Positions 5,915-43,752 of a stretch of 64,000 nt of DNA are shown here, in pieces; the first letter of the stretch is position 1, and each line of letters starts with the position of its first letter. A model generated the notes under the pieces. It was not told the DNA's origin and searched no databases. It saw only the letters and a program-made list of their open reading frames with translations. Made by a program: the position numbers and the translations under genes. The DNA is taken from NCBI GenBank assembly GCA_028868715.1, contig JAGWUB010000001.1, positions 119,206 through 183,205 on the forward strand, read 5' to 3'. This DNA comes from Patescibacteria group bacterium (GTDB lineage Bacteria > Patescibacteriota > Minisyncoccia > Phycocordibacterales > UBA9973).

Positions 5915-8344
5915 ATGCCAGGTAATAATAAAACAAAAATCAAGACTCTAGTATTACTGGATGCTCATGCCATAATACACCGCGCTTACCATGCTCTCCC
6001 AGAGTTTTTGTCTTCTGATGGCGTTCCGACCGGAGCATTGTATGGACTCGCCACTATGTTGATGAAGATTATCACTGACTTAAAACCAGATTACATCGTG
6101 GCTTGTTATGATTTACCGCAAAAAACCTTTCGCCATGAAGCGTATGATGCTTATAAAGCTGGAAGAAAAAAAACTGATGACGCCCTAGTCACTCAATTAA
6201 TCAACTCTCGTAGCATATTTGAAGCCTTTAATATTCCCATATATGACAGCCCAGGATTTGAAGCCGATGACGTGCTAGGGACAATTGTAGAAAACCACAA
6301 AAATGATAAAGGGATTAAGATAATAATTGCCTCTGGGGATATGGATACGATGCAGTTGGTAGATGATAAAAAAGTACAAGTTTACACTCTCAAGAAAGGT
6401 ATCAACGACACTATTTTATACGATGAAGATAAAGTCGTGGAGAGATTTCACTTTAAGCCTAAACTTTTGCCAGACTACAAAGGTTTGCGTGGTGACCCAT
6501 CAGACAATATTATTGGTATTAAAGGAATTGGAGAAAAAACGGCTGAAAGCTTGATTCTTAATTTTGGGACTATTGAAGAAATTTATAAGAAAATCAAACA
6601 GGATGAAGGTGCTTTTAAAAAGGCGGGCCTCAGTCCAAGAATGATAGAGTTAATAAAAAATAATGAAGAAGAAGCCTTATTTTCAAAAACTTTAGCAACT
6701 ATTCGCACTGACGCGCCAATAAATTTTACTTTACCTAAAAAAACTTTTTGGGAAAGCGCTGATTTAAAGAAGGTTGAGCAAGTTTTTATGCAGTATGAAT
6801 TTCGAAGTTTATTTGCGAGACTTAAAACTTTTTTTGGAAATAATTCAGCCGAACAGGGTTCAGTAGAATTTTCTCAGGTCCTCGGAGATGGGGCCCCAAC
6901 CCCAACCAGACCATTCCAAAATTCTCCGAACCCTGTTCGGCTGAAAGAAGCTAGTATTGCCCTCTGGCTGATAAATTCTGAAATAGCCAACCCAAAACTA
7001 GAAGATGTGTTGCACTTTGCAAGAACGGAGGATTTTGAAGTCGCTTACGAATATATTTTTAAAAAACTTAAGGAAAAGAAATTGGAAAAGGTTTATGAAG
7101 AAATCGAGCAACCCATAATGTCTATTGTGAAAGAGATGGAAGACCATGGAATTTTAATTGATAAAAAATATTTTACCCAGTTGTCGAACGAATATCACAA
7201 AGAGTTGGATAAATTGACGATCAAGATATATAAAATGGCTGGAACTGAGTTTAACATAAATTCTCCCAAACAATTAGGAGAAGTACTTTTTGATAAATTA
7301 GGGATAACGCCACCTGGGAAAAAAACAGCAAAAAAAAGCGCCAATGGATCTTTCAGTACTAAAATTTCTGTGTTAGAAGAATTAGAACAAGAGAATGAAA
7401 TTATCAAAGAGATAATGGCTTATCGAGAACTTCAAAAATTACTTTCCACCTACATAGATGTGATACCCAAAATGGTTGATGCCAATGATCGACTACACGC
7501 AAAATTTTTACAAAATGGATCTTCAACAGGCAGATTTTCCTCACAGGATCCAAACCTTCAAAATTTGCCGATTAAAACGGAATTGGGTAAAAGAATCAGG
7601 GGAGGGTTTATAGCAGAGAAGGGTTATAAAATTACCGCATTTGACTATAGTCAGATTGAGTTGCGGGTGGTAGCCATGTTGTCAGGAGATAAAAAAATGA
7701 CACAAGTTTTTCGTGAAAAAAAAGATATTCATGCCGGAGTGGCTGCACTTGTTTTTAGTGTACCGATAGATAAAGTCGATAGCGAGATGCGCCGTAAGGC
7801 CAAGGTGATAAATTTCGGTATTATTTATGGTATGGGAGTTACGGCTCTGCGTAAAAATCTAGGAGGCACTAGAGAAGAGGCACAAAAATTCTATGATAAT
7901 TATTTCAATCAATTTTCTGGAGTACGAGATTATTTGGCTGGAGTAAAGAAGTTTGCAGTGGAGCATACCTATACGGAAACATTGTTCGGCCGGAAAAGAA
8001 GTTTCCCAAATATAAATTCCAGAATTCCTTTTTTAAAAAATATGGCCGAACGCACAGCCATCAATGCTCCGGTTCAGGGAACGGCAGCAGATATAATAAA
8101 ACTAGCCATTAGATACACCGACGAAGCTCTTAAAAAAGCAGGTTTACTAAAACAGGTACACTTGATGCTACAAATACATGACGAGCTAGTATACGAGATA
8201 GATGAAAGTGTGCTCACCAAAGCAAGTAAAATAATAAAAGATGCTATGGAAGGTGTACTAATGGAGTCATATTTGCATTATAAAACTGATATACCCCTAG
8301 AAGTTCACTATAATTCTGGTAATAATTTTGGGGAAGTAAAATAA
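5915..8344 (+). CDS. polA: DNA polymerase I (compact; carries an in-frame palindromic insertion)
   Basis: 5'-3' exonuclease motifs (LLDAH, EADD, GDPSDNI), DYSQIELR, AKVINFGIIYG, LQIHDEL; ATG at 5915. Confidence 0.96.
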   Translation: MPGNNKTKIKTLVLLDAHAIIHRAYHALPEFLSSDGVPTGALYGLATMLMKIITDLKPDYIVACYDLPQKTFRHEAYDAYKAGRKKTDDALVTQLINSRSIFEAFNIPIYDSPGFEADDVLGTIVENHKNDKGIKIIIASGDMDTMQLVDDKKVQVYTLKKGINDTILYDEDKVVERFHFKPKLLPDYKGLRGDPSDNIIGIKGIGEKTAESLILNFGTIEEIYKKIKQDEGAFKKAGLSPRMIELIKNNEEEALFSKTLATIRTDAPINFTLPKKTFWESADLKKVEQVFMQYEFRSLFARLKTFFGNNSAEQGSVEFSQVLGDGAPTPTRPFQNSPNPVRLKEASIALWLINSEIANPKLEDVLHFARTEDFEVAYEYIFKKLKEKKLEKVYEEIEQPIMSIVKEMEDHGILIDKKYFTQLSNEYHKELDKLTIKIYKMAGTEFNINSPKQLGEVLFDKLGITPPGKKTAKKSANGSFSTKISVLEELEQENEIIKEIMAYRELQKLLSTYIDVIPKMVDANDRLHAKFLQNGSSTGRFSSQDPNLQNLPIKTELGKRIRGGFIAEKGYKITAFDYSQIELRVVAMLSGDKKMTQVFREKKDIHAGVAALVFSVPIDKVDSEMRRKAKVINFGIIYGMGVTALRKNLGGTREEAQKFYDNYFNQFSGVRDYLAGVKKFAVEHTYTETLFGRKRSFPNINSRIPFLKNMAERTAINAPVQGTAADIIKLAIRYTDEALKKAGLLKQVHLMLQIHDELVYEIDESVLTKASKIIKDAMEGVLMESYLHYKTDIPLEVHYNSGNNFGEVK
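6844..6945. repeat. In-frame palindromic insertion element, family B (polA copy)
   Basis: Perfect 18-bp inverted repeat TTCAGCCGAACAGGGTTC 6844-6861/6928-6945; 102 bp = 34 codons; core resembles 15517-15603. Confidence 0.8.
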
Positions 8345-8393
8345 TTTACCTACCTACCTGCCAGTCGGCAGATTTTGTGGTATAATCCATAAA

Positions 8394-8864
8394 ATGGAAA
8401 CTGAAACTAAAAAGACCCACAAAGCCACAGTACACAGGGTTTTAGCCCACACCTATACAGTGTATTTGGTGTTGTTTTTGGTTGGAGTTTGTCTTGATTT
8501 TATCTTTAAAATTAAAATTTTAGAAGACTCTATCGTGGTACCAGTCGGTTTCTTTTTTCTGGTATTAGCTTCTGTGCTTATCATTTGGGCGCAAAAGACT
8601 GGACGGGACTTGAGAAAAGTTTCTGAAGTAAAAACTGAACATTTTTGCAAGGGTCCATATTGCTATACTCGTATACCTACCCAGTGGGGCCTATTCTTTT
8701 TAATGTTGGGGTTTGGTATTATCACTAATGCTTTTTTTGTAATTTTATCTACAATTGTTTCATTTTTTATTTCAAAATTCTTTTTCCAAAATAAGCATGA
8801 CAAACTTTTGGTTGAAAAATACGGTGATGCTTACGTAGAATACAAAAAATTAGTTAGGTTTTAA
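8394..8864 (+). CDS. Membrane protein, isoprenylcysteine carboxyl methyltransferase/PEMT-like family
   Basis: Several TM helices, GPY..TR.P motif, KYGDAY.EYKK.V C-terminus. Confidence 0.7.
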   Translation: METETKKTHKATVHRVLAHTYTVYLVLFLVGVCLDFIFKIKILEDSIVVPVGFFFLVLASVLIIWAQKTGRDLRKVSEVKTEHFCKGPYCYTRIPTQWGLFFLMLGFGIITNAFFVILSTIVSFFISKFFFQNKHDKLLVEKYGDAYVEYKKLVRF

Positions 8865-8867
8865 ATT

Positions 8868-9515
8868 ATGATATACCTTTTTACAGGGGATGATACTAAA
8901 AAAAAGCTTCCGGCCTATGAAAAATTTATAAAATCCATCCCAGCAGGGACGGAGAAATTTTTCATAAACAGGAATGATCTCAATCCTACGCAGATAGAAA
9001 GTTTTTACTCTGGGAGAGGACTATTCTTTAATAAATGCGCAATTGTATTTTCGGATATTTTAGAACGAGAAGAAGGACGGGAATTTATTTTAAAGAGATT
9101 AAAATTTATGAGCGATTCGGACAACTCTTTTATTTTTTTAGAAAGAAAATTAAACAAGCCGGTGGTAGATGCTTTTAAAAAGCACAAGAGTGAGCTTAAT
9201 ATATTTGAGCTAGCTAAAGAAAAAAAAGAGAAATTTAACAACTTTTTACTGGCTGATGCTTTTGAACAAAAAGATAAGTTGAATCTTTGGATTTATTATC
9301 GACAGGCCGTAGATAAAGGGGTGGGCTTAGAGGAACTCGTCGGGGTACTTTTCTGGAAAGCGAAAGACATGTTCTTGAAACGCAGATTTGGTAAGTTTAA
9401 AGAAGAGCAAGTAAAGAGTTTTGCTGAAAAACTCCCATATCTTTTATCAGAAGCTCGAAAGGCTGGCCGTGATGCCGAAATAGTTTTTGAGCAGTTTTTA
9501 CTAAGCGCTTTTTAA
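8868..9515 (+). CDS. holA: Short DNA polymerase III delta subunit (HolA)-like protein
   Basis: MIYLFTGDD N-terminus, F.LADAF..KDK C-terminal helix pattern. Confidence 0.6.
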   Translation: MIYLFTGDDTKKKLPAYEKFIKSIPAGTEKFFINRNDLNPTQIESFYSGRGLFFNKCAIVFSDILEREEGREFILKRLKFMSDSDNSFIFLERKLNKPVVDAFKKHKSELNIFELAKEKKEKFNNFLLADAFEQKDKLNLWIYYRQAVDKGVGLEELVGVLFWKAKDMFLKRRFGKFKEEQVKSFAEKLPYLLSEARKAGRDAEIVFEQFLLSAF

Positions 9516-9559
9516 TTATCTTGATTTTTAGCCTTATTTCCTATATATTTTGTATTCAA

Positions 9560-9635
9560 GCGCCCGTAGCTCAGTCGGTAGAGCAGCTCCCTTTTAAGGA
9601 GATGGTCGTAGGTTCGATTCCTACCGGGCGCACCA
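9560..9635 (+). tRNA. tRNA-Lys (TTT)
   Basis: GCGCCCG acceptor stem, anticodon loop CTTTTAA, GTTCGATTC, encoded CCA. Confidence 0.95.
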
Positions 9636-9672
9636 ACACAAACCTCGTAAAGAATGTGTTAACATGTAAAGT

Positions 9673-9810
9673 ATGCATAGGATTAATTTAACTTTAGTAT
9701 TTTTTCTTATCTTTACTATCATAAGTTCTGCGTTGGCTTATAAAATTGTAATGAGTGCTTATGATACCTATGATATTAGCTATAGTGAAGTTCAAGTAAC
9801 ACATAAATGA
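9673..9810 (+). CDS. 45-aa single-TM micro-protein overlapping the uvrB start
   Basis: Manual translation MHRINLTLVFFLIFTIISSALAYKIVMSAYDTYDISYSEVQVTHK*; ATGA overlap with uvrB at 9807-9810. Confidence 0.55.
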   Translation: MHRINLTLVFFLIFTIISSALAYKIVMSAYDTYDISYSEVQVTHK

Positions 9811-11999
9811 GTATTTTTAAATTACATAATCCATTTCAGCCTGCTGGGGATCAACCAGCAGCCATTTTAAAACTAGTCCAAGGACTCAAAGATGGCATGC
9901 AGGCTCAGACATTGCTCGGTGCTACAGGCACGGGGAAGACTTTTACTATGGCTAATGTCATTGCAAAGCACAACAAACCCACTCTCGTGATAGCTCACAA
10001 TAAAACTCTCGCGGCACAACTAGCTCAAGAATTTCGGGAATTTTTCCCCACAGCTGCTGTGCATTATTTTGTTTCTTATTATGACTATTATCAACCCGAA
10101 GCTTATATGCCGGCATCGGATACTTATATTGAAAAAGATGCCTCCATCAATAAAGAGATAGACCGGCTTCGCCATGCTACCACTCAAGCGCTACTTACTA
10201 GACCAGATGTAATAATCGTAGCCTCCGTTTCCTGTATTTATGGCTTGGGTTCTCCGGAAGAGTACGAAAAAGTAAATTTAAAACTCGAAATAGGCCAGAA
10301 AATGGATAGGCTTGCGCTGATGAAAAGACTTATAACCATCCATTTTGAACGCACTAATGCCGACCTTACTTCTGGGAAATTCCGCTCTATTGGTTCTAGG
10401 GTAGAATTTATGCCGGTGTCAGAAATTATTATGTATCAAATAGAATTTTCTGGCGGAGTAATTGCTAAAATTACTAAAATTGACCCAGTTTCATCACACA
10501 TTCTTTCTGAAGAAAAAAATATCTTTATTTTCCCAGCAAAACATTTTATTACCGAAGACGTGAAGAAAAAAAGAGCTTTAGTGGAAATAAAAAAGGAACT
10601 AGAAACACAACTTAAGAAATTTAAAAAAGAAGGAAAGCTTTTAGAAGCTGAAAGAATTAAAAGAAGAACAAATTATGACCTAGCAATGATAAAAGAGATC
10701 GGATATTGTAATGGTATTGAAAATTATTCTCGACATCTCTCTGGCAAAGCCGAGGGAGAACCACCTGAAACTCTTTTGTCATACTTTCCTCATATAAAAA
10801 ATCCGGAACATACTCGCCGTCATTCGCACTCTGTTCTGGAAGGGAAAGACTTATCTGGTCGCAGCAAAGATTCCTCTGAGTATGTTCAGGACTTCCTAAC
10901 GATCATTGATGAATCGCATGTGACCTTACCACAACTGCAGGGGATGTATGCTGGTGATGCTTCGCGTAAAAATACCCTTGTAGAATATGGCTTTCGTCTG
11001 CCTTCAGCCAAAGATAACCGACCACTGAAATATGAAGAATTCAAGGAGCGCATAGGGCAAGTCGTATACACCAGTGCTACGCCAAGCGAAAGAGAACGTA
11101 GTCAAAGTGAACAAATTGTAGAACAGATTATTCGGCCGACAGGTTTAGTAGACCCAGAAACAATTGTTCGCCCAATCGGCGAAAAAAATAAATACAAAGG
11201 TCAGATATCAGATTTTATAGAGGAGACAGAAAAAACAATTAAAAAAGGATTTAGAGTTTTGGCGACCACGTTGACCAAAAAAATGGCAGAAGATCTTTCT
11301 ACTTATTTGAAAGATAAGAAAATCAAAGCAGAATATTTACATAGTGATATCAAGACGATGGATAGAATAAAAATTCTCACTCAGTTTCGTAAAGGGGAGT
11401 TTGATGTTTTGGTTGGGGTAAATCTTTTACGGGAAGGGCTAGATTTGCCTGAAGTAGCCTTGATTGGAATTTTAGATGCTGATAAATCTGGATTCCTAAG
11501 ATCTGAAACGTCGCTCATCCAAACCATTGGCCGAGCAGCCCGAAACAGTGAAGGGCGGGTTATTCTGTATGCTGACATCATGACGGATGCGATGGACTAT
11601 GCGTTAAAGGAAACTAAACGGCGTCGAGACATCCAGATTGCTTATAATAAAAAGCATGGTATCACCGCGACGACAATAAATAAAAAAATTCACGATATTA
11701 CTGAAGAGCTAGAGAGTGAGCATGGGAAAGTGGTAAACGCTGAACTCTTGCTAGACGTAGAGCTTTTCAAAAAAGCTTTTGCGAAAGACAAGAGCAATAA
11801 AGGGAAAAATGAATCTGATTCAATCAAAAATCTGGCGTTGAGTGATGAAGAAAGAAATAAAATAGTTTACGACAAGATAATAAAACTCAAAGAAAAAGAA
11901 ATGAACAAAGCCGTGAAAGAACTCGACTTCGAAACTGCTGCAATCTTGCGGGATGAAATTGTAGTTTTAAAAACTAGATTGGATAAAAAAGAAAAATAA
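9807..11999 (+). CDS. uvrB: Excinuclease ABC subunit B (with in-frame insertion)
   Basis: GATGTGKTFT, YYDYYQPEAY, IDESH, GFRLPSA.DNRPL, LLREGLD, C-terminal UVR domain. Confidence 0.97.
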   Translation: MSIFKLHNPFQPAGDQPAAILKLVQGLKDGMQAQTLLGATGTGKTFTMANVIAKHNKPTLVIAHNKTLAAQLAQEFREFFPTAAVHYFVSYYDYYQPEAYMPASDTYIEKDASINKEIDRLRHATTQALLTRPDVIIVASVSCIYGLGSPEEYEKVNLKLEIGQKMDRLALMKRLITIHFERTNADLTSGKFRSIGSRVEFMPVSEIIMYQIEFSGGVIAKITKIDPVSSHILSEEKNIFIFPAKHFITEDVKKKRALVEIKKELETQLKKFKKEGKLLEAERIKRRTNYDLAMIKEIGYCNGIENYSRHLSGKAEGEPPETLLSYFPHIKNPEHTRRHSHSVLEGKDLSGRSKDSSEYVQDFLTIIDESHVTLPQLQGMYAGDASRKNTLVEYGFRLPSAKDNRPLKYEEFKERIGQVVYTSATPSERERSQSEQIVEQIIRPTGLVDPETIVRPIGEKNKYKGQISDFIEETEKTIKKGFRVLATTLTKKMAEDLSTYLKDKKIKAEYLHSDIKTMDRIKILTQFRKGEFDVLVGVNLLREGLDLPEVALIGILDADKSGFLRSETSLIQTIGRAARNSEGRVILYADIMTDAMDYALKETKRRRDIQIAYNKKHGITATTINKKIHDITEELESEHGKVVNAELLLDVELFKKAFAKDKSNKGKNESDSIKNLALSDEERNKIVYDKIIKLKEKEMNKAVKELDFETAAILRDEIVVLKTRLDKKEK
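10802..10891. repeat. In-frame palindromic insertion element, family A (uvrB copy)
   Basis: 80-bp core 10807-10886 is 79/80 identical to 15111-15190; arms TCCGGAACATACTC / GAGTATGTTCAGGA; 90 bp = 30 codons. Confidence 0.92.
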
Positions 12000-12111
12000 A
12001 GACTTTTTAGTTTTTTCTGCTATACTAGAAGCAGTTAAATATAGATAGACACCCCCTATGAACAAGGCCGGGTGTGATTGTGTTATATATAGCAAAAATT
12101 AGTGAAAACCA

Positions 12112-14734: not shown

Positions 14735-16051
14735 ATGAAAATTGAATCTTTCAAAAAAATAAAATTACCAAATAAACCCGGAGTATATTTTTTTCAAAAA
14801 GGTAAAACTATTTTATATATTGGTAAGGCAACTTCTCTTCGAGATAGGGTCAAAAGTTATTTTGGGAGAGATTTGATCAACACCCGAGGTCCGCTTTTAG
14901 TAGATATGATTTTTAAGGTAGATAAAATAAAGTGGCAGGAGACAGACAGTGTCTTGGAATCACTTATCTTAGAAGCTAGTTTCATAAAGAAACACCAACC
15001 TTACTACAACACTAAAGAAAAAGATGATAAAAGTTTTAACTATGTAATTATTACAAAAGAAAAACTACCCAAAGTTATTACCATTCGAGGCAAAGAATTA
15101 AAGATGCAGAAACATACTCGCCGTCATTCGCACTCTGTTCTGGAAGGGAAAGACTTATCTGGTCGTAGCAAAGATTCCTCTGAGTATGTTTCTGCATCTT
15201 TCGGTCCGTTTACGAGTGGTCCTCAATTACGTGAAGCATTGAAAATAATCCGCAAGATTTTTCCATTCCTAGACGATAAAAGTAAAAATTATATGGAATT
15301 TTATCGGCAGATAAATTTAGTACCAGATTTAAATGACCATAAATTATACTTGCAAAACATAAGGAACATAAAATTATTTTTTCAAGGCAAAAAGAAAGAA
15401 ATTTTTAGAAATCTAAAAAAGGAAATGCATGCTTATGCCAAAGCCAGAGAATTTGAAAAGGCAAGCGAAATAAAAAGACAGCTTTTTGCTCTGCAACATA
15501 TAAATGACATTGCTATGTTGAAACAAGAATCTACTTTTTCTCAGTCGCTCGGGGATGAGCTTCGCTCAACCACTCCTTCAAAAAAGCAAATTCTTGTTTC
15601 AGCCTCTATACGTATAGAGGCTTACGACATAGCTCATATGGGAGGTAAAAATATGGTTGGGGCTATGGTAGTGCTTGAAAATGGTGAGCCAGCAAAGAGT
15701 GAATATAAAAGGTTCAAAATTAGAACTCAAGACAATACAAATGATACTGGGGCACTAAAGGAAGTGCTGGAAAGGAGGCTGGCACATACAGAATGGGCCT
15801 ACCCGAGCTTGATAGTTGTAGATGGTGGCACAGCGCAAATAAATGTAACTAAAAATGTTTTAAATAAGCTCAAGGTAAATATTCCTATAGTTTCAGTATT
15901 AAAAGACGAACGACACAAACCCAAAGATATTATGGGTGACAAAAAAAATGCTTTGAAGTACAAGCGAGAAATTTTATTAGCCAATAGTGAGGCGCATAGA
16001 TTTGCCATTGCTTATCATAAAAATATGCGCAACAAAAACTTTTTGAAATAA
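14735..16051 (+). CDS. uvrC: Excinuclease ABC subunit C (short form, two in-frame insertions)
   Basis: GIY-YIG N-terminus (PGVYFF..YIGKA.SLR.RV.SYF), UVR helix, RIEAYDIAH, VVDGG, EAHRFAI. Confidence 0.92.
   Translation: MKIESFKKIKLPNKPGVYFFQKGKTILYIGKATSLRDRVKSYFGRDLINTRGPLLVDMIFKVDKIKWQETDSVLESLILEASFIKKHQPYYNTKEKDDKSFNYVIITKEKLPKVITIRGKELKMQKHTRRHSHSVLEGKDLSGRSKDSSEYVSASFGPFTSGPQLREALKIIRKIFPFLDDKSKNYMEFYRQINLVPDLNDHKLYLQNIRNIKLFFQGKKKEIFRNLKKEMHAYAKAREFEKASEIKRQLFALQHINDIAMLKQESTFSQSLGDELRSTTPSKKQILVSASIRIEAYDIAHMGGKNMVGAMVVLENGEPAKSEYKRFKIRTQDNTNDTGALKEVLERRLAHTEWAYPSLIVVDGGTAQINVTKNVLNKLKVNIPIVSVLKDERHKPKDIMGDKKNALKYKREILLANSEAHRFAIAYHKNMRNKNFLK
15100..15201. repeat. In-frame palindromic insertion element, family A (uvrC copy)
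   Basis: Perfect 20-bp inverted repeat AAAGATGCAGAAACATACTC 15100-15119/15182-15201; 102 bp = 34 codons; same core as the uvrB copy. Confidence 0.92.
15517..15603. repeat. In-frame palindromic insertion element, family B (uvrC copy)
   Basis: 23-bp inverted repeat with 3 mismatches 15517-15539/15581-15603; 87 bp = 29 codons; core TTTTCTCAG..CTCGG.GATG-hairpin-AACCA shared with the polA copy. Confidence 0.78.
15601..15622. repeat. Perfect 22-bp palindrome in uvrC
   Basis: AGCCTCTATACGTATAGAGGCT is its own reverse complement. Confidence 0.85.
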
Positions 16052-16533: not shown

Positions 16534-16649
16534 TTGCGGAAATTAAAATCCTACCGGACTCACCACGAAATTTTTTTGCTAAAAAATTTCTCTGTCCGTC
16601 GCCGTCGCTCCTACCAAGGGTTCGCTCGGCAGCATTTTAATTTCCACAA
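16534..16649. repeat. Intergenic palindromic element, family C
   Basis: 23-bp inverted arms with 3 mismatches 16534-16556/16627-16649; inner hairpin 16567-16590; reverse complement resembles 43681-43738. Confidence 0.72.
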
Positions 16650-22221: not shown

Positions 22222-24261
22222 TTATTGTGTCACAGTGGTAGTTTTTCTACCAGAAGGTTGCTCCAAAGTCGTGGTAGTTTTTCTCTGGAATGATTGACCA
22301 AAGAGGTATTTAGCCAAAAGGATCAATACTAAGATTAGAATCAAGAGTAGAAGCCAACCAAAGATACTGTTTGGTAGGAAGCCAGCTCCGAAGACATTTG
22401 CTCCAAGAGATACACCAGATACAGTTCCACAAACATTTGCTGAGACATTTGCGCTGACTGATTGTGGCGCACCAGAAGGATCAACATAACTCAAGGTAGC
22501 AGGGAAGTTCAAAGGTGCACCAGCGGATATATTTTCTCTTACATGCACTCTGGCTGTCACTGTACCTTGTCCGTTTGCTCGCAAGGTTCCCAAGTTAAAG
22601 ATTAAAGTTTGCCCAGAAATAGTTGCGTTGCTTGGATTTGAGGATAGGTAAGTAACTTCTGCTGGAAGATCTACTCGCAGCACTAGGCCAGTAATAGATG
22701 CATTGCCGATGTTTTGATAAGTTATGCTGTAATTAATATCATCTCCAGGACATGGATTAGTATTGTCGAGCGTAGGGACGATTGGTCGATTACGGTCTAC
22801 GGTAGAAGTGACCAAGACCAAAGAGGTAGGTGTTCTATTAGTGGTAACTCCTAATACTTGTCCATTTACATTTACCGTCACAAAATCACTTGCTGATCCC
22901 ATACCATTAGTACAAGTTATTGAATAAGTTCTAGTGCCAGTCAAACTTCCAGTGTAGAAAGCACCTGGACCGATAGACTTTATTCCTGCCCAACCGACAG
23001 ATCCACCAGAGGCATTACAAGAAGTTGCATTAGTGGTGCTCCAGCGGATTGTCGTAGCTCCGTTGAAGGCTAGGTTAGTTTGATCTGCAGTTATAGTTAC
23101 TGTTGGTTGATAAGTTACTGGAAAAATGTTTCCACCAGTTACATAAACTGTAGTTGAACCAACTGCATTTCCAGTACCGTTACTACAATTTATATTGAAG
23201 GTCGTTGTGTTAGTTAGTGGTCCAGTGTAGAAACTTCCAGACAAATTTTGAGTGCCATACCAGCCGTTGGTGCCACCACTCGCGGTACAGTAAGTCGCAT
23301 TAGTCGAATACCAAGTTATGGTGCTTGTACCATTGTAGTTTACATTTGATGGGCTAGCGTAGATACTAACAACTGGATACTGTTGATTATTATAATTATT
23401 TACATAAACCGTAGTTGAAGCCACTGCACTTCCAGTACCGTTACTACAATTTATATTGAAGGTCGTTGTGTTAGTTAGTGGTCCAGTGTAGAAACTTCCA
23501 GACAAGTTTTGAGTGCCATACCAACCGTTGGTAGTACCACCACCTCCACTTGCTGTACAGTAACTTGCATTGGTTGAATACCAAGTTATGGTACTTGTGC
23601 CGTTGTAGTTTACATTTGATGGGCTAGCATAAATACTGACGGTCGGAACATTTTGGTTGTTATTTACATAAACCGTTGCAGTCGCGCTAGCTGATTGACC
23701 AGTACTATTTGTACAAGTAGTCGTGTAAGTCGTAGTTCCGGTCGGAGTAACTATACCCGATCCAGAGGTTGCAGTGCTTCCAGTCCAAAAAGCGGAGCAA
23801 GAAGTTGCATTAGTTGAATACCAAGTAAGAGTACTTGAATTACCAGAGTTAATAGTTGAAGGATTTGCATTTAGAGTTACAGTTGGAGTCGAGATTTGGT
23901 TACAAGAAGGAGTCGTAAAAGTTCTAGTTTCGCCAGTATAATTACCATTCCTATTTGAGGCCATCGCTCGGAACGAATAAACAGTATTTTCCGTAAGACC
24001 ACTTATGTATTGAGAGTAGCTTCCACTTACTGTAAAGCTTTGCTGAGGAGTAGTGTTATCAAGGGAACCACCTTGACCCCATTCAAACCATGCCAAAGTT
24101 GCCACACCGCCGGTATTAACATTTCCATCTAAAGTGGCGCTATTGCATGTCATTGCAAAAGCAGTCTTTGCTGGCATTAAGGGTACAGCCAAAATACCCA
24201 TAAATACGACCATACTTAGTAAAAGCAAACCTTTATTCAATTGTGTTTTTAAATTGTTCAT
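22222..24261 (-). CDS. Large Ser/Thr-rich cell-surface protein with tandem Ig-like repeats, DUF11-like domain and C-terminal TM anchor
   Basis: Signal peptide, repeated PTVTL.A.P..W.STNATSC.A units, PGDDINYSITYQNIG, C-terminal hydrophobic helix. Confidence 0.8.
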   Translation of the reverse strand: MNNLKTQLNKGLLLLSMVVFMGILAVPLMPAKTAFAMTCNSATLDGNVNTGGVATLAWFEWGQGGSLDNTTPQQSFTVSGSYSQYISGLTENTVYSFRAMASNRNGNYTGETRTFTTPSCNQISTPTVTLNANPSTINSGNSSTLTWYSTNATSCSAFWTGSTATSGSGIVTPTGTTTYTTTCTNSTGQSASATATVYVNNNQNVPTVSIYASPSNVNYNGTSTITWYSTNASYCTASGGGGTTNGWYGTQNLSGSFYTGPLTNTTTFNINCSNGTGSAVASTTVYVNNYNNQQYPVVSIYASPSNVNYNGTSTITWYSTNATYCTASGGTNGWYGTQNLSGSFYTGPLTNTTTFNINCSNGTGNAVGSTTVYVTGGNIFPVTYQPTVTITADQTNLAFNGATTIRWSTTNATSCNASGGSVGWAGIKSIGPGAFYTGSLTGTRTYSITCTNGMGSASDFVTVNVNGQVLGVTTNRTPTSLVLVTSTVDRNRPIVPTLDNTNPCPGDDINYSITYQNIGNASITGLVLRVDLPAEVTYLSSNPSNATISGQTLIFNLGTLRANGQGTVTARVHVRENISAGAPLNFPATLSYVDPSGAPQSVSANVSANVCGTVSGVSLGANVFGAGFLPNSIFGWLLLLILILVLILLAKYLFGQSFQRKTTTTLEQPSGRKTTTVTQ
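23140..23640 (-). repeat. Intragenic tandem duplication (about 261-bp period)
   Basis: 76 nt identical between 23169-23244 and 23430-23505, with similar flanks. Confidence 0.9.
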
Positions 24262-35356: not shown

Positions 35357-35361
35357 ACCAG

Positions 35362-36911: not shown

Positions 36912-36956
36912 ATAAAATTTGTTTATAGTGTTTGTTTATTGTTATAATTCTATTAT

Positions 36957-37040
36957 GCCCAGGTGGCGAAACTGGTAGACGTACTACCTTGAGGTGGTAG
37001 CGCCCGCAAGGGCATGGGAGTTCAAATCTCCCCCTGGGCA
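36957..37040 (+). tRNA. tRNA-Leu (GAG)
   Basis: GCCCAGG acceptor stem, CTACC-TTGAGGT-GGTAG, long variable arm. Confidence 0.94.
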
Positions 37041-37050
37041 CACATAACTT

Positions 37051-37458
37051 ATGGACAATAAAAATATTCCAACTGAAGAAGAATTGAAGAATAAATTAGA
37101 CAAAGAACAGTACAGAGTTCTAAGGGAAAAGGGAACTGAAGCCCCTTTTTCTGGTAAATATTTAAATGAAAAAAGATCTGGAACTTACACATGTGTTGTT
37201 TGCGACAATCCCTTATTTCCATCTACCGCTAAGTTTGATTCTAGTATTTCTGGGCTAGCTGGTTGGCCTTCATTTGACCAGGCATTACCTGGAGCTATTA
37301 AATTTCAGAAGGACTTATCTTATAACATGGAACGCACCGAAGTTCTCTGCGCCAAGTGTAATTCTCACCTGGGGCATGTCTTTGATGATGAATCGGCAAA
37401 GACGGGAAAGCATTACTGTCTGAATTCTATTTGCTTAAATTTAAAAGAAGAAAAATAG
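37051..37458 (+). CDS. msrB: Peptide methionine sulfoxide reductase MsrB
   Basis: GTEAPF, GWPSF, RTEV.C..C.SHLGHVF, HYCLNS. Confidence 0.95.
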   Translation: MDNKNIPTEEELKNKLDKEQYRVLREKGTEAPFSGKYLNEKRSGTYTCVVCDNPLFPSTAKFDSSISGLAGWPSFDQALPGAIKFQKDLSYNMERTEVLCAKCNSHLGHVFDDESAKTGKHYCLNSICLNLKEEK

Positions 37459-37474
37459 ATCGTATAATTACCAT

Positions 37475-37909
37475 ATGCAATTCACAAGTGAAGTATTAAT
37501 AAAAATAGCTATTTTTATTTTAGGTCTGTGTGGTTTTTTAGTAGCAAAACATATCTACAACCACAAAACAAAAAATACACCGCTTATTTGTCCAGCTAGA
37601 TTTGATTGTCATGCGGTGGTCCACAGTGATTATTCTAGATTTCTAGGTATAAGGGTGGAGATTTTAGGTATGTGTTATTACGCCTTTACAGTTGTTGCGT
37701 ATGCTGTATTTATTTTTAAGTCAGAACTTTTATTTTTTGGTCACGCTGACCTGATTAATATATTTTTTTTCTCCTTGTCATTGGCAGCCTTCCTTTTTTC
37801 CACCTATCTGATTGCTGTACAAATTTTTATATTAAAAAAAGGTTGCTCTTGGTGTATAGTCTCAGCCTTTATTTGTCTTTGTATTTTTATACTAACTGTG
37901 ATTAAATAG
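37475..37909 (+). CDS. Vitamin K epoxide reductase (VKOR) family protein
   Basis: C...C..V..S.YS and C-terminal CSWC motif in a TM protein. Confidence 0.85.
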   Translation: MQFTSEVLIKIAIFILGLCGFLVAKHIYNHKTKNTPLICPARFDCHAVVHSDYSRFLGIRVEILGMCYYAFTVVAYAVFIFKSELLFFGHADLINIFFFSLSLAAFLFSTYLIAVQIFILKKGCSWCIVSAFICLCIFILTVIK

Positions 37910-37918
37910 CTAGTACAT

Positions 37919-37991
37919 GGTGCCCATGGTGTAACGGTTAACACGGAGGTTTGTGGAACCTTCGATTCGGGTTCAATTCCCGATGGGCACC
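37919..37991 (+). tRNA. tRNA-His (GTG)
   Basis: Encoded G-1, GTGCCCA/TGGGCAC stem, loop TTGTGGA, C73. Confidence 0.92.
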
Positions 37992-37995
37992 CATT

Positions 37996-38388
37996 TTATT
38001 TTCTTTCTATCTCTCCATCTATATGGTCTAGTTTTTTCTCTAACCTTGTCAGAGTATTTTGTAGATTTTTTATTTGAGTTTCTTCTGTTTCTATTTCTCC
38101 CTCCTCTTTTTCTTCAAGTTTTTTCTCTCCAACCAAACCAGAAATAATAAGTTTGTTACCAATAAATTCTGCAACAAAAACTCCGATAATAATTAGGATT
38201 ATCGATCCAGAAATTAGAGATATTAAACTACCCAGATTAATTTCGTCGGCGATATGCCATACTCCACGCCAAAATAATACTATCCCTATACCGCCGATAA
38301 ATGCATACAGGATGGGATAGTGGCTCAATTTACCCCTTATCCTATATTCCAACCTATCAAAAGATTTTACAATTTTTCTTGCGAACAT
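37996..38388 (-). CDS. Conserved hypothetical membrane protein
   Basis: LSHYPILYAFIGG.G.VLFWRGVW, C-terminal coiled coil. Confidence 0.7.
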   Translation of the reverse strand: MFARKIVKSFDRLEYRIRGKLSHYPILYAFIGGIGIVLFWRGVWHIADEINLGSLISLISGSIILIIIGVFVAEFIGNKLIISGLVGEKKLEEKEEGEIETEETQIKNLQNTLTRLEKKLDHIDGEIERK

Positions 38389-38496
38389 TTTTTAATTATA
38401 GCAACAAATAAGTAGTATATCCAAGTTTGCCTATTTTTCAGTTTTGGGTCGAAGTCCAGATAGCAATCCACATACATTAATAGTAGAATTATCAGC

Positions 38497-39075
38497 ATGG
38501 AGGGGGGAAATGAAAATTTGATAAAAGTTTTGCAGGATAATGGCGTGGTAGTTATGCCCACAGATACCTTATACGGTATCGTGGGTAAAGCACTCAGCTC
38601 TGACGCCGTTGAGCGTATATATGTCATAAGAAAAAGAGCACCTCAAAAACCATGCATAATATTAATAGGAGAGATAAATGAACTTGAAAAATTTTCTATA
38701 ACTCTTTCTTCGGAACAAAAAGAAAAATTAAAAGAATACTGGTCCTTCGATAATCTAGAAGATAGACCTGCTCCGATTAGTATTGTGCTGGATTGCCCCA
38801 ATGATAGATTCACATATTTACATCGGGGCACTAATACTTTAGCTTTTAGGTTGCCTTACCAGAAAGAGCTTCAAAATTTACTTTTAAAAACTGGACCACT
38901 GATTGCTCCTTCTGCCAACCTAGAAGGCTTACCTCCAGCTCGGAATATTTTTGAAGCGAAAGAATATTTTGGAAATTTAATTAACCTGTACATAGATGGC
39001 GGAGAGTTAAACGGTAAGGCGTCTAAAGTTATTAAATTGCATAAAGATGGTTCGGTGACTATAATTCGTGAGTGA
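38497..39075 (+). CDS. tsaC: L-threonylcarbamoyladenylate synthase (TsaC/Sua5/YrdC)
   Basis: PTDTLYG, K.R..KP, AFRLP, APSAN. Confidence 0.92.
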   Translation: MEGGNENLIKVLQDNGVVVMPTDTLYGIVGKALSSDAVERIYVIRKRAPQKPCIILIGEINELEKFSITLSSEQKEKLKEYWSFDNLEDRPAPISIVLDCPNDRFTYLHRGTNTLAFRLPYQKELQNLLLKTGPLIAPSANLEGLPPARNIFEAKEYFGNLINLYIDGGELNGKASKVIKLHKDGSVTIIRE

Positions 39076-39144
39076 GAATAATAAGTTAACTTAATTAAAC
39101 GAGTAAATAATGTAATTATATTGTATTCGTTATATACTTAGGGA

Positions 39145-40515
39145 ATGAAGAAAGGAATTCTGGAAAAATTTTTCAGCGCCCCAGCCGAGATATTGGAAAA
39201 AGGAGTTGAGATAGGGCATGATTTAAAAAAGGATATAGAACAAGAACGCCCTGTGAAGGCAGCTGCGAGCTATTGGAAGATTTTGGGCCCAGGATTAACT
39301 ACTGGAGCCGCTGATGATGATCCATCTGGAATCGCTACTTATTCACAGATGGGCGCTTTCCGAGGTTTTAATTTAATTTGGCTATCTTTGTTTTCCTTTC
39401 CTTTAATGGGAGTTATCCAAGAAATGTGTGCTCGCATTGGATTGACCACCGGCGTAGGGCTGGCCACTAATATCAAGAGACATTTCTCAAAGAGACTTTT
39501 GTATTTTTGTACAGTACTACTTCTTTTCGCAAACGTTTTCAACATCGGAGCAGACCTAGGAGCGATGGCTAAGGGCACTCAACTTATTTTCCCCAGAATA
39601 GATTTTACTTTTTTGGTTGTGTTTTTTGTGATAGCGAGCCTCGTCCTCCAGATTTTTATTTCTTACAAAAAATATTCAAAATATTTAAAGTATCTCGCTC
39701 TGGTTCTTTTCGCTTATGTCTTTTCCGCATTTTCCGTAGCCATAAATTGGGGAGATGTATTTAGACACTTAGTAATTCCAACAATTTCTGTTTCCAAAGA
39801 TGAAATTATTTTAATTTGTGCTGCTTTTGGTACCACTATTTCACCGTACTTGTTCTTTTGGCAGACTGCCCAAGAAGTAGAAGAACAAATATTGAAAGGT
39901 GAAAAAACAGAAGAACAAAGACGAGCCTTAAATACCAGTAAAGATATTTATGACATGAGGGTAGATGTCTGGTCAGGGATGCTTCTCTCTAATTTGATTA
40001 TGTTTTTTATAATTGCGACCTGTGCGGCAACACTATTTGCCAATGGCATTACAAACATAGGCACCGCTGCCGATGCGGCACTAGCCTTAAAGCCATTCGC
40101 TGGAGATTTTGCTTTTACATTATTTGCAATTGGGATTGTAGGAGTCGGGCTTCTGGCAATTCCAATTCTTGCAGGATCAGCGTCTTATGCATTGTCTGAG
40201 ACATTCAATTGGAAAACAGGCCTTTATCGAAAATTAAAGCAAGCTACTTCTTTTTATGGAGTGATAATCATAGCAATGCTCTTGGGGATGATTTTAAATT
40301 TCATTGGATTGGATCCCATTAAAACCCTTATTTATTCGGCTGTTTTCAACGGTATTATTTCTCCGGTTATTTTATTTTTTATAGTGAAGATAAGCGCCAG
40401 CGAAGAAATAATGGGAGAATACAAAAACAAAAGAACTGCCAACATCATCGGTTGGTTTTCAGTGGTACTATTATTTGTGGTAAGTCTTAGTACAATAATT
40501 TTTCTTTTCGTGTAA
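39145..40515 (+). CDS. NRAMP-family divalent metal transporter
   Basis: LGPGL.TGAADDDPSGIATYSQ, GTTISPYLFFWQ, many TM helices. Confidence 0.9.
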   Translation: MKKGILEKFFSAPAEILEKGVEIGHDLKKDIEQERPVKAAASYWKILGPGLTTGAADDDPSGIATYSQMGAFRGFNLIWLSLFSFPLMGVIQEMCARIGLTTGVGLATNIKRHFSKRLLYFCTVLLLFANVFNIGADLGAMAKGTQLIFPRIDFTFLVVFFVIASLVLQIFISYKKYSKYLKYLALVLFAYVFSAFSVAINWGDVFRHLVIPTISVSKDEIILICAAFGTTISPYLFFWQTAQEVEEQILKGEKTEEQRRALNTSKDIYDMRVDVWSGMLLSNLIMFFIIATCAATLFANGITNIGTAADAALALKPFAGDFAFTLFAIGIVGVGLLAIPILAGSASYALSETFNWKTGLYRKLKQATSFYGVIIIAMLLGMILNFIGLDPIKTLIYSAVFNGIISPVILFFIVKISASEEIMGEYKNKRTANIIGWFSVVLLFVVSLSTIIFLFV

Positions 40516-40516
40516 G

Positions 40517-41530
40517 ATGGAAATTCAGCAAAACTATGATTTAACTAAATTAAATACCTTAGGAGTATCTGCTCACGCTAAATTTTTTACTGAGTTAAAT
40601 AATGAGCAGGAGCTGAAAGAACTTTTTGATTTAGCAGAGTTTAAACAGGAAAAAAAAATATTTCTAGGTGGTGGAAGCAATGTTTTATTTACACAGGACT
40701 TTGACGGTCTGGTTATTTTAAATAAACTCAAAGGAATTGAAATTCTAGAGGAAAATAATCAAGAGGTAAGCATAAGATCTATCAGCGGAGAAATATGGCA
40801 TGACCTTGTTTCTTTTTCGGTAGACAAAGAACTTTGGGGTATTGAAAATCTTTCGCTTATTCCTGGCACAGTCGGTGGTGCACCGGTGCAAAATATTGGA
40901 GCGTATGGAGCAGAGTTAAAAAATGTTCTGGAGAATGTTGAAGCATACAATATTGTTGATGGCTCAAAGCGGATTTTTGCAGTAGAGGAATGTGCACTTG
41001 GTTACAGAGATAGCGTTTTTAAAAATAAACTAAAAGGTCAATATTTTATTTCAGCGGTAACTTTAAAATTGAGCAAAATACCAAGACCAAATATTTCTTA
41101 CAAGTTATTGGCTGACTATTTGAAAGAAAATAATATTGAAGTGCATAACCCTAGGGACATAAGCGGTGCGGTGATAGCCATCAGAAGCAGTAAGTTGCCA
41201 GACCCAGCTGTTATAGGTAATGCCGGTAGTTTTTTTAAAAATGTTTTTGTTAACGATGAAAAATTAAAAGACTTGCAAAAATCTTTTCCAGAAATTAAAT
41301 ATTTTAAAGAACAGGAGCAAATAAAAATTCCCGCTGGTTGGCTGATAGAACAGTGTGGCTGGAAGGGGAGACGAATCGGGAACGTCGGTGTGCATGAACA
41401 ACATGCCTTGGTCTTGGTAAATTACGGTGGTGGGTCAGGGAAAGAGCTTGAAAATTTAGCGCAGAAAATAATTGACTCGGTTTACGCTAAATTTGGCTTG
41501 AAATTAGTTCCAGAAGTCAATTTTATTTAG
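40517..41530 (+). CDS. murB: UDP-N-acetylmuramate dehydrogenase
   Basis: LGGGSN, IPGTVGGAPVQNIGAYG, GYRDS, NAGSFFKN, HALVLVN. Confidence 0.95.
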   Translation: MEIQQNYDLTKLNTLGVSAHAKFFTELNNEQELKELFDLAEFKQEKKIFLGGGSNVLFTQDFDGLVILNKLKGIEILEENNQEVSIRSISGEIWHDLVSFSVDKELWGIENLSLIPGTVGGAPVQNIGAYGAELKNVLENVEAYNIVDGSKRIFAVEECALGYRDSVFKNKLKGQYFISAVTLKLSKIPRPNISYKLLADYLKENNIEVHNPRDISGAVIAIRSSKLPDPAVIGNAGSFFKNVFVNDEKLKDLQKSFPEIKYFKEQEQIKIPAGWLIEQCGWKGRRIGNVGVHEQHALVLVNYGGGSGKELENLAQKIIDSVYAKFGLKLVPEVNFI

Positions 41531-41548
41531 GTATGTTATAATACATAC

Positions 41549-42382
41549 ATGGAAACTTTAGAAGAAAACAAAAAAAAGCTATATAAAGTAGCATTTATAT
41601 TATTAATTATATTATCAGCTTATTTTGCAGTTAGAATATTTTCTGAGCTAAAGAAAACTAGTATGCTCGGTGAAAGTGCGACTCCAACCACAATTTCATT
41701 CTCAGGGCACGGAGAAGTCACGGCGGTGCCGGATATTGCCACTATTGATTTTACAATTAGCAAAGATGACGCAACAGTTAAAAATGCACAGGCGGGAGTG
41801 GCAACCATTGAAAAGAAGGCCCTAGATTTTTTAAAGACAAAAGGGGTAGCTGATAAAGATATTCAGACTGCCAATGCATCTTTTTATCCTAAATATGAAT
41901 ATAGGCAAGCTGCCTGTCCACCAATACCAATGGGGACTGGCACAGCCGGAGGCACTGTTAACACAATATCTCCTTACTACTGTCCCCCTAGCAGGCAAGT
42001 GATCACAGGCTATACAGCTAGTGAAAGTATCACGGTAAAAGTTCGTAATACTGATGATGCTGGGGCCATAATGCAAGGCTTGGGTGCTACTGGAGTTTCA
42101 AACCTAAATGGTCCAAATTTTGAGATAGATAATCCAGAGGTTCTAAAGGGGGAAGCTAGAAAAAAAGCGATAGATGAAGCAAAAGCAAAAGCAGTTGCCT
42201 TGGCAAAAGATTTAGGTGTGAGCCTAGGTAAAATCGCGAGCTTCAATGAGTCCGGCAATAGTCCGATCATGTATGCCAAGGATTCACTAATGGCTAGTGG
42301 CGTAGCTCCAGCTCCAGCAGAAATTCCAAAAGGACAAAATACTATAACTTCAGATGTAACCATAACTTACGAAATAAGATAA
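41549..42382 (+). CDS. SIMPL (DUF541) domain protein
   Basis: G.GEV.A.PD.A, P.Y.Y, ARKKAI.EAK.KA..LA..LGV.LG. Confidence 0.88.
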   Translation: METLEENKKKLYKVAFILLIILSAYFAVRIFSELKKTSMLGESATPTTISFSGHGEVTAVPDIATIDFTISKDDATVKNAQAGVATIEKKALDFLKTKGVADKDIQTANASFYPKYEYRQAACPPIPMGTGTAGGTVNTISPYYCPPSRQVITGYTASESITVKVRNTDDAGAIMQGLGATGVSNLNGPNFEIDNPEVLKGEARKKAIDEAKAKAVALAKDLGVSLGKIASFNESGNSPIMYAKDSLMASGVAPAPAEIPKGQNTITSDVTITYEIR

Positions 42383-42436
42383 TAGCTATAAGCCGAGAGA
42401 GCCAGTTTGACTATTTGAGGTAAAAAGAGTACTATT

Positions 42437-42461
42437 AAAAGAGCCCTTTCGGGGGCTTTTT
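42437..42461. terminator. Intrinsic terminator-like hairpin
   Basis: AAAAGAGCCC-TTTCG-GGGGCTTTTTT. Confidence 0.7.
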
Positions 42462-42487
42462 TAAGAGAAGTAGTATAATAAAATTAC

Positions 42488-42673
42488 ATGTCAAAAATCA
42501 CTGAATATTTTAAAGAGACAAAGATAGAGTTAAAGCACGTAATTTGGCCTTCCAGAAGCCAGACCATTTACTACACTTTGATCGTCATCATTCTGTCTGT
42601 TTTGATAGGATATTATTTAGGTATCTTTGACTTTATTTTCTCAAAGGGATTGGAAAAACTAATCACACGTTAA
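42488..42673 (+). CDS. secE: Preprotein translocase subunit SecE
   Basis: ELKHVIWPS, single TM, upstream of nusG. Confidence 0.93.
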   Translation: MSKITEYFKETKIELKHVIWPSRSQTIYYTLIVIILSVLIGYYLGIFDFIFSKGLEKLITR

Positions 42674-42681
42674 GTTATATT

Positions 42682-43224
42682 ATGAAACAAGAAGTACAAG
42701 GAGCCCGAAATTGGTACGCTATCCATACTTATGCAGGGTATGAGAATGTTGTTTTGCGTAATTTACGTCAACGTATTGATTCTCTGGGAATGAACGACAA
42801 AATTTTTAATGTGATTGTTCCAATTGAAAAGAAAATAAAAATAAAAGGTGGCAAGCGAGTAGAAGTGGAAGAAAAAATTTACCCTGGTTACTTGTTGGTA
42901 GATATGATTGTAACGGATGATTCATGGTATGTAGTCAGGAATACTCCTAGAGTTACTGGATTCGTAGGCGCTGGAGTTAATCCGGTTCCTTTGAAAAAAG
43001 AAGAAGTGGACTATCTATTTAAGAAAATGGATGCAGGCACAGCCAAGCATAACATTGATATGACTGTCGGAGAGAGTATTTTGATTACTGACGGACCATT
43101 TAAAGACCTAGAGGGCAAGATAAACTCCATTGATCAAGATCGTGGCAAGATCAAAGTGCTTGTTTCTATGTTCGGCCGAGAAACCCCAATAGAATTAGAC
43201 TTCTTGCAAGTTAAGAAAATTTAA
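42682..43224 (+). CDS. nusG: Transcription termination/antitermination factor NusG
   Basis: WYAIHTYAGYE, YPGY, VRNTPRVTGF, KOW, MFGRETP. Confidence 0.97.
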   Translation: MKQEVQGARNWYAIHTYAGYENVVLRNLRQRIDSLGMNDKIFNVIVPIEKKIKIKGGKRVEVEEKIYPGYLLVDMIVTDDSWYVVRNTPRVTGFVGAGVNPVPLKKEEVDYLFKKMDAGTAKHNIDMTVGESILITDGPFKDLEGKINSIDQDRGKIKVLVSMFGRETPIELDFLQVKKI

Positions 43225-43241
43225 GTTAATCTAAGAATCAC

Positions 43242-43664
43242 ATGGCAAAAAAAATAACCAAAAAAATAAAACTTCAAATACAAGCTGCGAAAGCTACTCC
43301 AGCTCCACCACTAGGTCCAGCGCTTGGACAGGCTGGTATTAATATCGGTGACTTTGTCACTAAGTTTAATGCGGCCACAAGTAAAATGGCAGGGGATAAA
43401 GTCGGTGTGGTGATCACTGTCTATGAAGATCGAAGCTATGATTTCGCTATCAAAACTCCACCAGTTACTGGTCTTATCTTAAAGGCAGCTGGTGTAGAGA
43501 AAGGATCTGGTAAAAATACTTCTACCAAAGTAGGCAAGATAACTAGAGCTCAAGCACTTGAAATCGCAAACAAGAAAATGGCAGACTTGAATGCCAAGGA
43601 CGACGAAGGAGCTATAAACATTGTCGCTGGCTCCGCTCGAAGTATGGGCATTGAAGTGAAATAA
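43242..43664 (+). CDS. rplK: 50S ribosomal protein L11
   Basis: [27 protein letters not shown]. Confidence 0.97.
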
Positions 43665-43752
43665 TTCACTTCAATGAACCGGAGCCCGACGGGGTGAGGT
43701 GTGCCCAGGCAATTTTTCAGCAGAAAAATATGCGTGGGTTGAAGTGAAATAA
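43649..43752. repeat. Family C palindromic element with direct-inverted-direct copies of the rplK 3' end
   Basis: TTGAAGTGAAATAA at 43651-43664 and 43739-43752; inverted copy TTCACTTCAATG at 43665-43676; core resembles the reverse complement of 16560-16611. Confidence 0.8.

Follow-up and report, generated by a model that had tools for sequence, protein, structure and literature searches.

The window studied here, a stretch of 64,000 nucleotides (nt) of contig JAGWUB010000001.1 from a Patescibacteria group bacterium, carries six hairpin inserts in or next to polA, uvrB, uvrC, mutM and rplK, each with a structured core between the two arms of an inverted repeat. Inserts of this kind are real and widespread in the genus and apparently undescribed so far. 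The genome that holds the window (G000) comprises 600 kb in two contigs and is rated 100% complete; 211 further genomes belong to the genus. All six hairpins and their arms lie where a preliminary description of this DNA had placed them, including the 20-bp arms in uvrC and the 18-bp arms in polA. The features are as follows.

6844..6945, minus strand (fold-favoured strand, antisense): in-frame F3 core in a polA loop; stem of 29 bp, of which the 18 distal pairs are perfect
10799..10894, minus strand: uvrB insert with a family A (F2) core, flanked by YFPH and Q/P-D-F-L
15100..15201, minus strand: family A (F2) core at uvrC site 1, with a perfect 20-bp stem
15517..15603, minus strand: F7 core at uvrC site 2, with 23-bp arms and 3 mismatches
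16534..16649, minus strand: F0-type core with a 23-bp stem, between the convergent ends of a trmH-like (SpoU) gene and mutM
43649..43664, plus strand: end of the rplK host gene (last codons and stop codon), of which two copies follow downstream
43665..43676, plus strand: exact 12-nt inverted copy of the rplK end, forming the left arm of the insert; not in the sister genome G207
43677..43738, plus strand: divergent F0-type core after rplK
43739..43752, plus strand: 14-nt direct copy of the rplK end, forming the right arm of the insert
5879..8344, plus strand: polA host gene, frame open through the insert
9807..11999, plus strand: uvrB host gene, frame open through the insert
14735..16051, plus strand: uvrC host gene with two inserts, frame open

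Hairpin inserts in polA, uvrB, uvrC and neighbouring loci

The core at uvrC site 1 equals the uvrB core at 79 of 80 positions; core plus 9 bp are common to both copies and the distal 11 bp are specific to the site. The uvrB hairpin (arm to arm 10802-10891, TCCGG..CAGGA, imperfect) consists of 9 inner pairs and a decayed distal arm, and its left copy retains the P-D-F state, which relatives do have at this position, as the preliminary description had read it. At uvrC site 2 the left arm overlaps the conserved L-K-Q-E codons, and three further F7 copies in G000 have different arms. After rplK the order is host end, inverted copy, core and direct copy, and G207 has the host end only once; these are templated copies of lineage-specific bases. 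The preliminary description held that the inserts are flanked by inverted rather than direct copies of host sequence. After rplK the inverted copy bears this out, and a direct duplication of the same gene end is present as well. Its idea that an arm is copied from the host gains from the same insert, which holds an exact inverted copy of the lineage's own gene end, absent from the sister.

The genome-wide inverted-repeat scan proposed earlier revealed 17 hairpins with a long loop at a score of at least 14, compared to 0-1 in three codon-shuffled genomes. An assembly artefact was rejected, as contigs of one sample containing this DNA cross the polA, uvrB and trmH copies unaltered (possibly the source sample, and hence not independent) and relatives carry these copies too. 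No empty allele was seen in the contigs of that sample, which drop rare variants. The only Rfam families matched in the window are tRNAs.

A dispersed repeat of one Patescibacteria genus

Seven core families emerged when 153 hairpins from 1.7 Mb were clustered (F7 added afterwards), and copies were counted by motif search after F7 and further loci had been included. In total, 286 copies were found at 86 sites in this one genus, 276 of them with a stem. They are dispersed repeats of 60-150 bp that encode no transposase and are therefore non-autonomous. Five chance pattern matches outside Patescibacteria, which had no arms, were dropped; three more (L299, L419, L424) occur in the later counts. 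The sample of copies is skewed towards the uvr region and F3. The F3 half motif is present in 135 of the 212 genus genomes and missing from 77, and an F3-like pattern occurs in 3 of 150 other genomes sampled from the order; the polA core was also found in records assigned to Ca. Nomurabacteria, Paceibacterota, Parcubacteria, Patescibacteria group, 'Saccharibacteria' and 'bacterium'. The genus tallies (genome number, Y1, GIY-YIG, F3 half motif and orphans) take in three unpublished genomes (G097-G099), on which alone no conclusion depends. A literature search, covering mostly open-access articles without their supplements, gave no account of these elements, and a term search of the main text of a 2026 preprint on mining non-coding elements found neither Patescibacteria nor candidate phyla radiation (CPR).

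G000 carries about 20 copies, which besides the window genes are fused in frame to uvrD, ksgA, fmt, def, leuS, tsaD and mnmA; the notion that only repair genes are targeted was rejected. The families B and C of the preliminary description did not hold as single families, since in each case the two cores gave no mutual BLAST match and are related subfamilies at most.

A further core related to family A (TCGCACTCTGTC..GCGAA), with a similar stem, lies at a tgt-like site on contig C1 of G000 and at the mnmA sites of G207 orthologous to L348; this family was left out of the counts. In L037 and at L159:11428, an F3 core is nested in a family A core in uvrB, with the left half replaced and the frame kept. 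That the L037 arms were copied from the A core was rejected, because similar arms surround the polA copy of another genome.

Conserved cores within stems of limited length

The cores share, on one strand, purine-rich internal loops, tandem GA pairs, which we take to be sheared G-A pairs, a bulged pyrimidine, and one or two variable hairpins. Among 70 pairs of near-identical cores (at most one base apart, at different sites), identity reaches only 0-10 bp into the arms in 69 pairs on the 5' side and 67 on the 3' side. From this we conclude that what is copied or converted comprises the core and 5-10 bp next to it. Arms common to several sites are absent from most of 127 F3 copies at 60 sites. 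Moreover, the 51 of 133 F3 copies that have a near-identical core elsewhere already possess arms of 13-28 bp, and no F3 copy has an arm shorter than 10 bp. Site-specific distal arms, a short shared unit and full arms on near-identical cores agree with the earlier proposal that one arm derives from the host.

Full stems measure about 20-28 bp, with an outer part unique to each site. Counted from a fixed anchor, 72-78% of the coding F3 copies are paired at positions 21-23, 40% at position 25 and about 25% by position 27, and the non-coding copies show the same stem edge. If only one copy per site is considered (63 sites), 68, 46, 35 and 21% are paired at positions 24-27, the longest stem being 28. 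In other families the ceiling lies between about 20 (A) and 28 (F0, F1). Two peaks, at 17-18 and 24-25, appear among the F3 stem lengths, since many stems have a three-by-three GNA/GNA loop at positions 18-20, followed by about four more pairs. Such GNA/GNA loops account for 30 of the 51 three-by-three loops and the mirror motif for none (by site 26 vs 0).

Ordinary template switching at any very stable hairpin, with a stem edge set by fork geometry, could in principle produce such arms, and a lack of MutS would help; indeed, MutS (PF00488) has no match in G000, no mobiliser was found, and arm homogenisation and spacer inversion are reported in the accessible text of PMC5941160, PMC8604942 and PMC6649704. 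However, control palindromes of five other repeat types at the same loci grow no arms, 28 of 29 reaching only 0-4 bp past their motif (a small sample, the exception reaching 7 bp), and the stem edge is sharp and family-specific, with GNA/GNA loops at a fixed distance. We therefore consider this explanation improbable.

Perfect or near-perfect palindromes of 21-24 bp with 3-10 nt loops occur in the same hot-spot loops in L009 (uvrC site 2), L052 (uvrB) and L058 (uvrB). They represent either collapsed stems or other repeats with site-specific arms.

Arms stay paired as sites diverge

The uvrB family A insert is found in many species (69-79% DNA identity; the uvrB tree is a quick tree with many weak forks), and in each of them the left arm follows that species' own codons for P-D-F. 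In 28 sister pairs of the same site and family, 564 positions showed 57 compensatory, 13 other double and 54 single changes, compared to 16.7 double changes expected; these arms had been selected for pairing, which limits single changes and creates no compensated double ones. In the family A alignment 96.5% of positions are paired, with 150 two-sided changes, a value reached by none of 500 shuffles (the rows being related), and the inner, non-host arm positions co-vary as well. Same-length orthologous uvrD copies of three genomes reveal compensation step by step. In the uvrB copy of G000 the right arm has drifted and the left arm did not follow, from which we conclude that arm upkeep is episodic.

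Comparison of orthologous sites

The closest useful genome pairs were G207/G203 (86%; 433 kb and 643 kb) and G103/G200 (85%), with G000 as third, and the filled and short alleles compared were 72-90% identical. At several of the 19 filled sites one arm clearly resembles the short allele: 19 of 24 positions match at uvrC of G103 (vs G200, with no net loss of host bases), 13 of 17 at tsaD, 11 of 15 at leuS and 9 of the first 11 at uvrC site 2; at a few sites the match is weak. At this divergence most of these pairs show no direct target duplication, and rplK has one of 14 bp. Several short alleles agree with the earlier prediction that one arm exists at the empty site and the other does not. The two patterns that the preliminary description had named as refuting occur as well: some short alleles have neither arm, and at one site that is filled in G207, G203 retains the two arms and little of the core.

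Distal arm sequence is specific to each site, and on one side it often runs over conserved host codons. For the 137 coding copies that have a shorter homologue, the host-like arm was placed 5' of the core 31 times and 3' of it 23 times, with 83 copies undecided, and its side tracks the conserved flank of the site, not the core. Presence is patchy, the sisters being without most copies, and cores are exchanged: at 18 of the 86 sites different species hold different core families, and sister genomes have different cores in polA, at both mnmA sites and at a ligase-like site. Both core orientations were found at one site, as would be expected from spacer inversion by template switching, to judge from the available parts of PMC8604942. 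In the window, the uvrC family A copy has distal arms similar to those that flank an F1-type core at this site in the distant relative G004 (L007), which makes a swap into an old stem likelier than a fresh insertion.

The preliminary description proposed that insertion builds one arm by copying the neighbouring host strand. In a strict form of this model the arm is built once, and later pairing is due to selection or to re-insertion at hot spots. Full arms on near-identical cores, the fixed stem length and a single host-like arm in several filled and short pairs, such as G103 vs G200, are in line with this strict model. It is at odds with the absent polarity relative to the core, the co-variation of inner non-host positions, the stepwise compensation in uvrD, pairing that is kept long after insertion, the swapped cores, and short alleles with both arms or none, so that we regard it as decidedly unlikely.

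Alternatively, cores might enter palindromes that already exist (host hairpins, GNA-capped mini-hairpins or stems of an earlier element), with selection on the fold perfecting the pairing; a palindromic target, if directly duplicated, would then mimic an inverted extension. The sites with several families point in this direction, as do the two arms without core in G203 and the short alleles that are weak palindromes (others show none). The same triplet stands on both sides in 22 of the 30 GNA/GNA loops, and in 21 of 35 coding copies the distance from GNA to GNA keeps the frame. In addition, the available text of PMC5678879 reports that IS1272 targets inverted repeats of differing sequence. However, the in-frame spans are not mutually independent and 14 of the 35 are out of frame, two of them in G000, for which reason GNA as a strict 3-bp target duplication was rejected. 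Furthermore, the sister short alleles at uvrC, tsaD, leuS, def and ksgA have no 20-bp stem, the inverted copy at rplK is inserted material, and no IS1182 (PF05598) or IS110 transposase was found in the five genomes tested. Taken together, we hold entry into existing palindromes to be unlikely, if deserving of attention.

Strand preference of the fold

The fold strand was assigned from the purine-rich internal loops and GA motifs ahead of mismatch counting. On this strand, arm mismatches comprise 121 G-T and 32 A-C; beyond arm position 8 the numbers are 121 vs 38 (33 vs 9 by site). Antisense cores show 52 A-C vs 19 G-T on the mRNA strand, and sense cores 10 G-T vs 5 A-C. A deamination bias would presumably yield A-C on the fold strand, the opposite of what was observed. 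Of 116 coding copies with arms, 89 have the fold strand in antisense, and at non-coding sites it is the locally C-rich strand (21 vs 4), from which we conclude that it is probably the lagging or the transcription-template strand; local skew does not separate lagging-strand from antisense bias, and the orientation of inserts in genes is partly determined by stop codons.

Of 202 copies with flanks that match one protein, 192 have an open frame, and two of the ten exceptions were examined and are intergenic sites. Length differences between insert and short allele are multiples of three. The preliminary description had noted arm-to-arm lengths divisible by three, which is correct for its four coding copies and fails as a rule, since other in-gene copies of G000 measure 70, 85, 112, 116 and 118 bp; arm-to-arm length is thus not the insertion length.

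These data also bear on two explanations at the level of the host. In the first, the host would select for a working fold (a binding site in single-stranded DNA or an antisense RNA) and point mutation would supply the arms, which would suit the strand-specific wobble, the GA motifs, and cores that are somewhat more conserved than coding flanks (0.87 vs 0.81, 25 pairs). We judge it very improbable in view of the patchy presence, the sisters without most copies, the many genomes without the F3 motif, and the rplK copies, which point mutation is unable to create. Introns or regulatory hairpins of the mRNA are barely credible: their guide sequences pair with flanking exon sequence, much as the arms here pair with flanking coding sequence, but the folding strand is mostly antisense, the frames stay open, and Rfam gave no family in the window besides tRNA.

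Candidate enzymes and other small elements

The preliminary description had suggested a search for a co-occurring nuclease flanked by the same cores, and none was found at the Y1 and GIY-YIG loci of relatives. Genes for Y1 enzymes are absent from G000, G207 and G203 and present in 87 of 121 genus genomes, a core lying near one of 30 Y1 loci, more than 1 kb away. The GIY-YIG domain occurs in 61 of 61 genomes (a tally that includes UvrC) and stand-alone GIY-YIG genes are common; among 29 new GIY-YIG loci one had a core, about 600 bp off. G000 has no reverse transcriptase and one XerC/D-like recombinase, and DUF559 occurs in three of five genomes. No autonomous long F3 element was found among 20 of about 65 half-motif orphans (F3 only), all of which were short variants or chance matches. 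A phage origin was rejected, as three core motifs had 0 matches in viral contigs.

Some stand-alone GIY-YIG genes are bounded by repeats of their own. Genes of about 85-110 codons lie within a constant inverted repeat of about 21 bp starting CCCCCACACC (G000 C1:207240-207560 (L142), L391, L392, L395, L400), and a copy with the same ends and without a gene is located at G000 C2:285504-285636; the whole has the look of a small mobile element of the GIY-YIG type that is accompanied by a MITE of its own (MITE, a miniature transposable element with inverted repeats). Another GIY-YIG gene (L407:1476-1755) lies between ATCCCGTTAGAGAT inverted repeats, with related sites at G000 C1:80425 and C2:35693; these ends also bound a 54-bp in-frame uvrB insert that is present in L083 and absent from the 98% identical L066. 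GIY-YIG genes adjoin tRNA-like sequence at L402:1357-1844 and G000 C2:86900-87470 (L141), the former between a perfect 20-bp inverted repeat, which presumably resembles a tRNA 3' end.

Elsewhere in the window, a hairpin with 27-bp arms and an AT-rich 99-nt loop lies at 3981-4133 between ruvB and a pilB-like ATPase gene; it has no second copy in the genome and belongs to no core family. Direct repeats of 121-141 nt, spaced 240-270 nt, at 23139-23837 fall within a 679-codon minus-strand open reading frame (22222-24261), probably encoding a repeat-domain surface protein.

Proposed mechanism

We tentatively favour, at somewhat less than an even chance, a core-directed and length-limited copying from arm to arm that runs repeatedly. 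The shared unit is the structured core with 5-10 bp of arm. The strand that bears the core would fold back, probably as single-stranded DNA, and one arm would be copied from the other by a polymerase, as far as a length that differs by family (about 24 bp in F3) and may be set by a factor recognising the core. The stem would thus be made and then repeatedly re-made, and the first colonisation of a site would involve the same stem-building reaction. Within genes, selection would let through only those events that copy the constrained flank into the free loop, which would be why one arm looks like inverted host codons on either side. A bolder version is possible, and doubtful in our estimation: the inserts would be mobile DNA with a protein-free core, and a factor acting in trans would recognise this core on single-stranded DNA, measure about 24 bp from it and have the adjoining host strand copied into the inverted arm at insertion and later. 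Every copy would then carry a self-made site-specific guide arm, could home into or trade places with other cores at its site, and would leave inverted duplications in place of direct ones.

Several observations speak against repeated arm copying. The main loose end is the GNA/GNA loop, which pure copying would not produce and for which selection or some other step is required. If synthesis folded back on one strand, the host-like arm should have a constant polarity, and the near balance of 31 and 23 with 83 undecided shows none. In coding copies G-T is not in excess among the ten outermost pairs (22 vs 16). A minority of F3 subfamilies have common arms of 18-22 bp across five to six sites. 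Neither arm is present in the short allele at L368:2438, L344, ksgA and L152. Compensation can come from selection alone, the arms having been ascertained on pairing. The searches above yielded no mobilising enzyme. Finally, no filled and empty pair found for these families is closer than about 85-90% identity, and consequently the direction and timing of events and the ancestral allele are not fixed.

Relation to known systems

The inserts resemble Rickettsia palindromic elements (RPEs) and intragenic bacterial MITEs (ERIC, Correia), which the accessible text of PMC2229807 describes as non-autonomous stem-loops of 100-150 bp, in frame in conserved proteins. RPEs and MITEs have constant terminal repeats, often with a TA duplication, whereas the ends shared here comprise 5-10 bp; an autonomous element with the same ends, as in MITE systems, was not found among the 20 F3 orphans. 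RPEs lose repeat identity over time, according to the sections available of PMC6649704, whereas the distal stem of our inserts is site-specific, limited in length and kept paired, RPEs being compared here by secondary descriptions.

Repetitive extragenic palindromes (REPs) and the paired REP hairpins (REPINs) are likewise hairpins of single-stranded DNA with compensatory changes, in which length and pairing outweigh sequence (available parts of PMC3116915), and many of their intragenic copies lie in repair genes (available parts of PMC3733652). REPINs have conserved ends and a variable inside, the reverse of the arrangement found here; instead of the GTAG/CGTC tag and conserved palindrome at REP ends, our inserts have variable ends, family A having CGTC inside the core on the non-folding strand. 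The repeat-flanked gene for a REP-associated tyrosine transposase (RAYT) has no counterpart, given the Y1 distribution described above.

IS1272, of the IS1182 family, leaves no direct duplication at its inverted-repeat targets, removes the target hairpin and encodes a DDE transposase (accessible text of PMC5678879). It provides a precedent for insertion at palindromes; our inserts retain host-like arms, and the five genomes gave no PF05598.

In integron attC sites one strand folds, and structure and bulged bases outweigh sequence. Unlike attC, the logos of our inserts have no GTTRRRY ends, and there are no cassette genes. Self-splicing and bulge-helix-bulge introns fold on the mRNA strand and leave the frame free, whereas the fold here is mostly antisense and frames are kept.

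For quasi-palindrome template switching and the coding palindromes of Nematomorpha, arm homogenisation and spacer inversion are reported in coding DNA, as may also apply to our inserts; the parts available of the three articles cited for template switching mention no mobile core, fixed length or strand-specific non-canonical pairs. Compensation, the two core orientations and the rplK copies fit such homogenisation, single events being below resolution at this divergence. By analogy, the inserts would work like RPE-type coding palindromes combined with arm upkeep by template switching, with a stem length that is measured and unexplained.

If it is true that a factor builds the stem from host DNA, this would constitute a route of mobilisation or self-repair without a described enzyme, acting in streamlined genomes without the usual transposases. 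How RPE-type palindromes move and persist has been an open question. Here, hundreds of copies in more than 100 related genomes repeatedly rewrite loops of PolA, UvrA/B/C/D, MnmA, TsaD and LeuS, and the same sites occur in filled, empty, swapped and collapsed form, which makes the question of movement testable by comparison. A conserved core in a site-specific stem of measured length is the inverse of known MITEs and REPINs.

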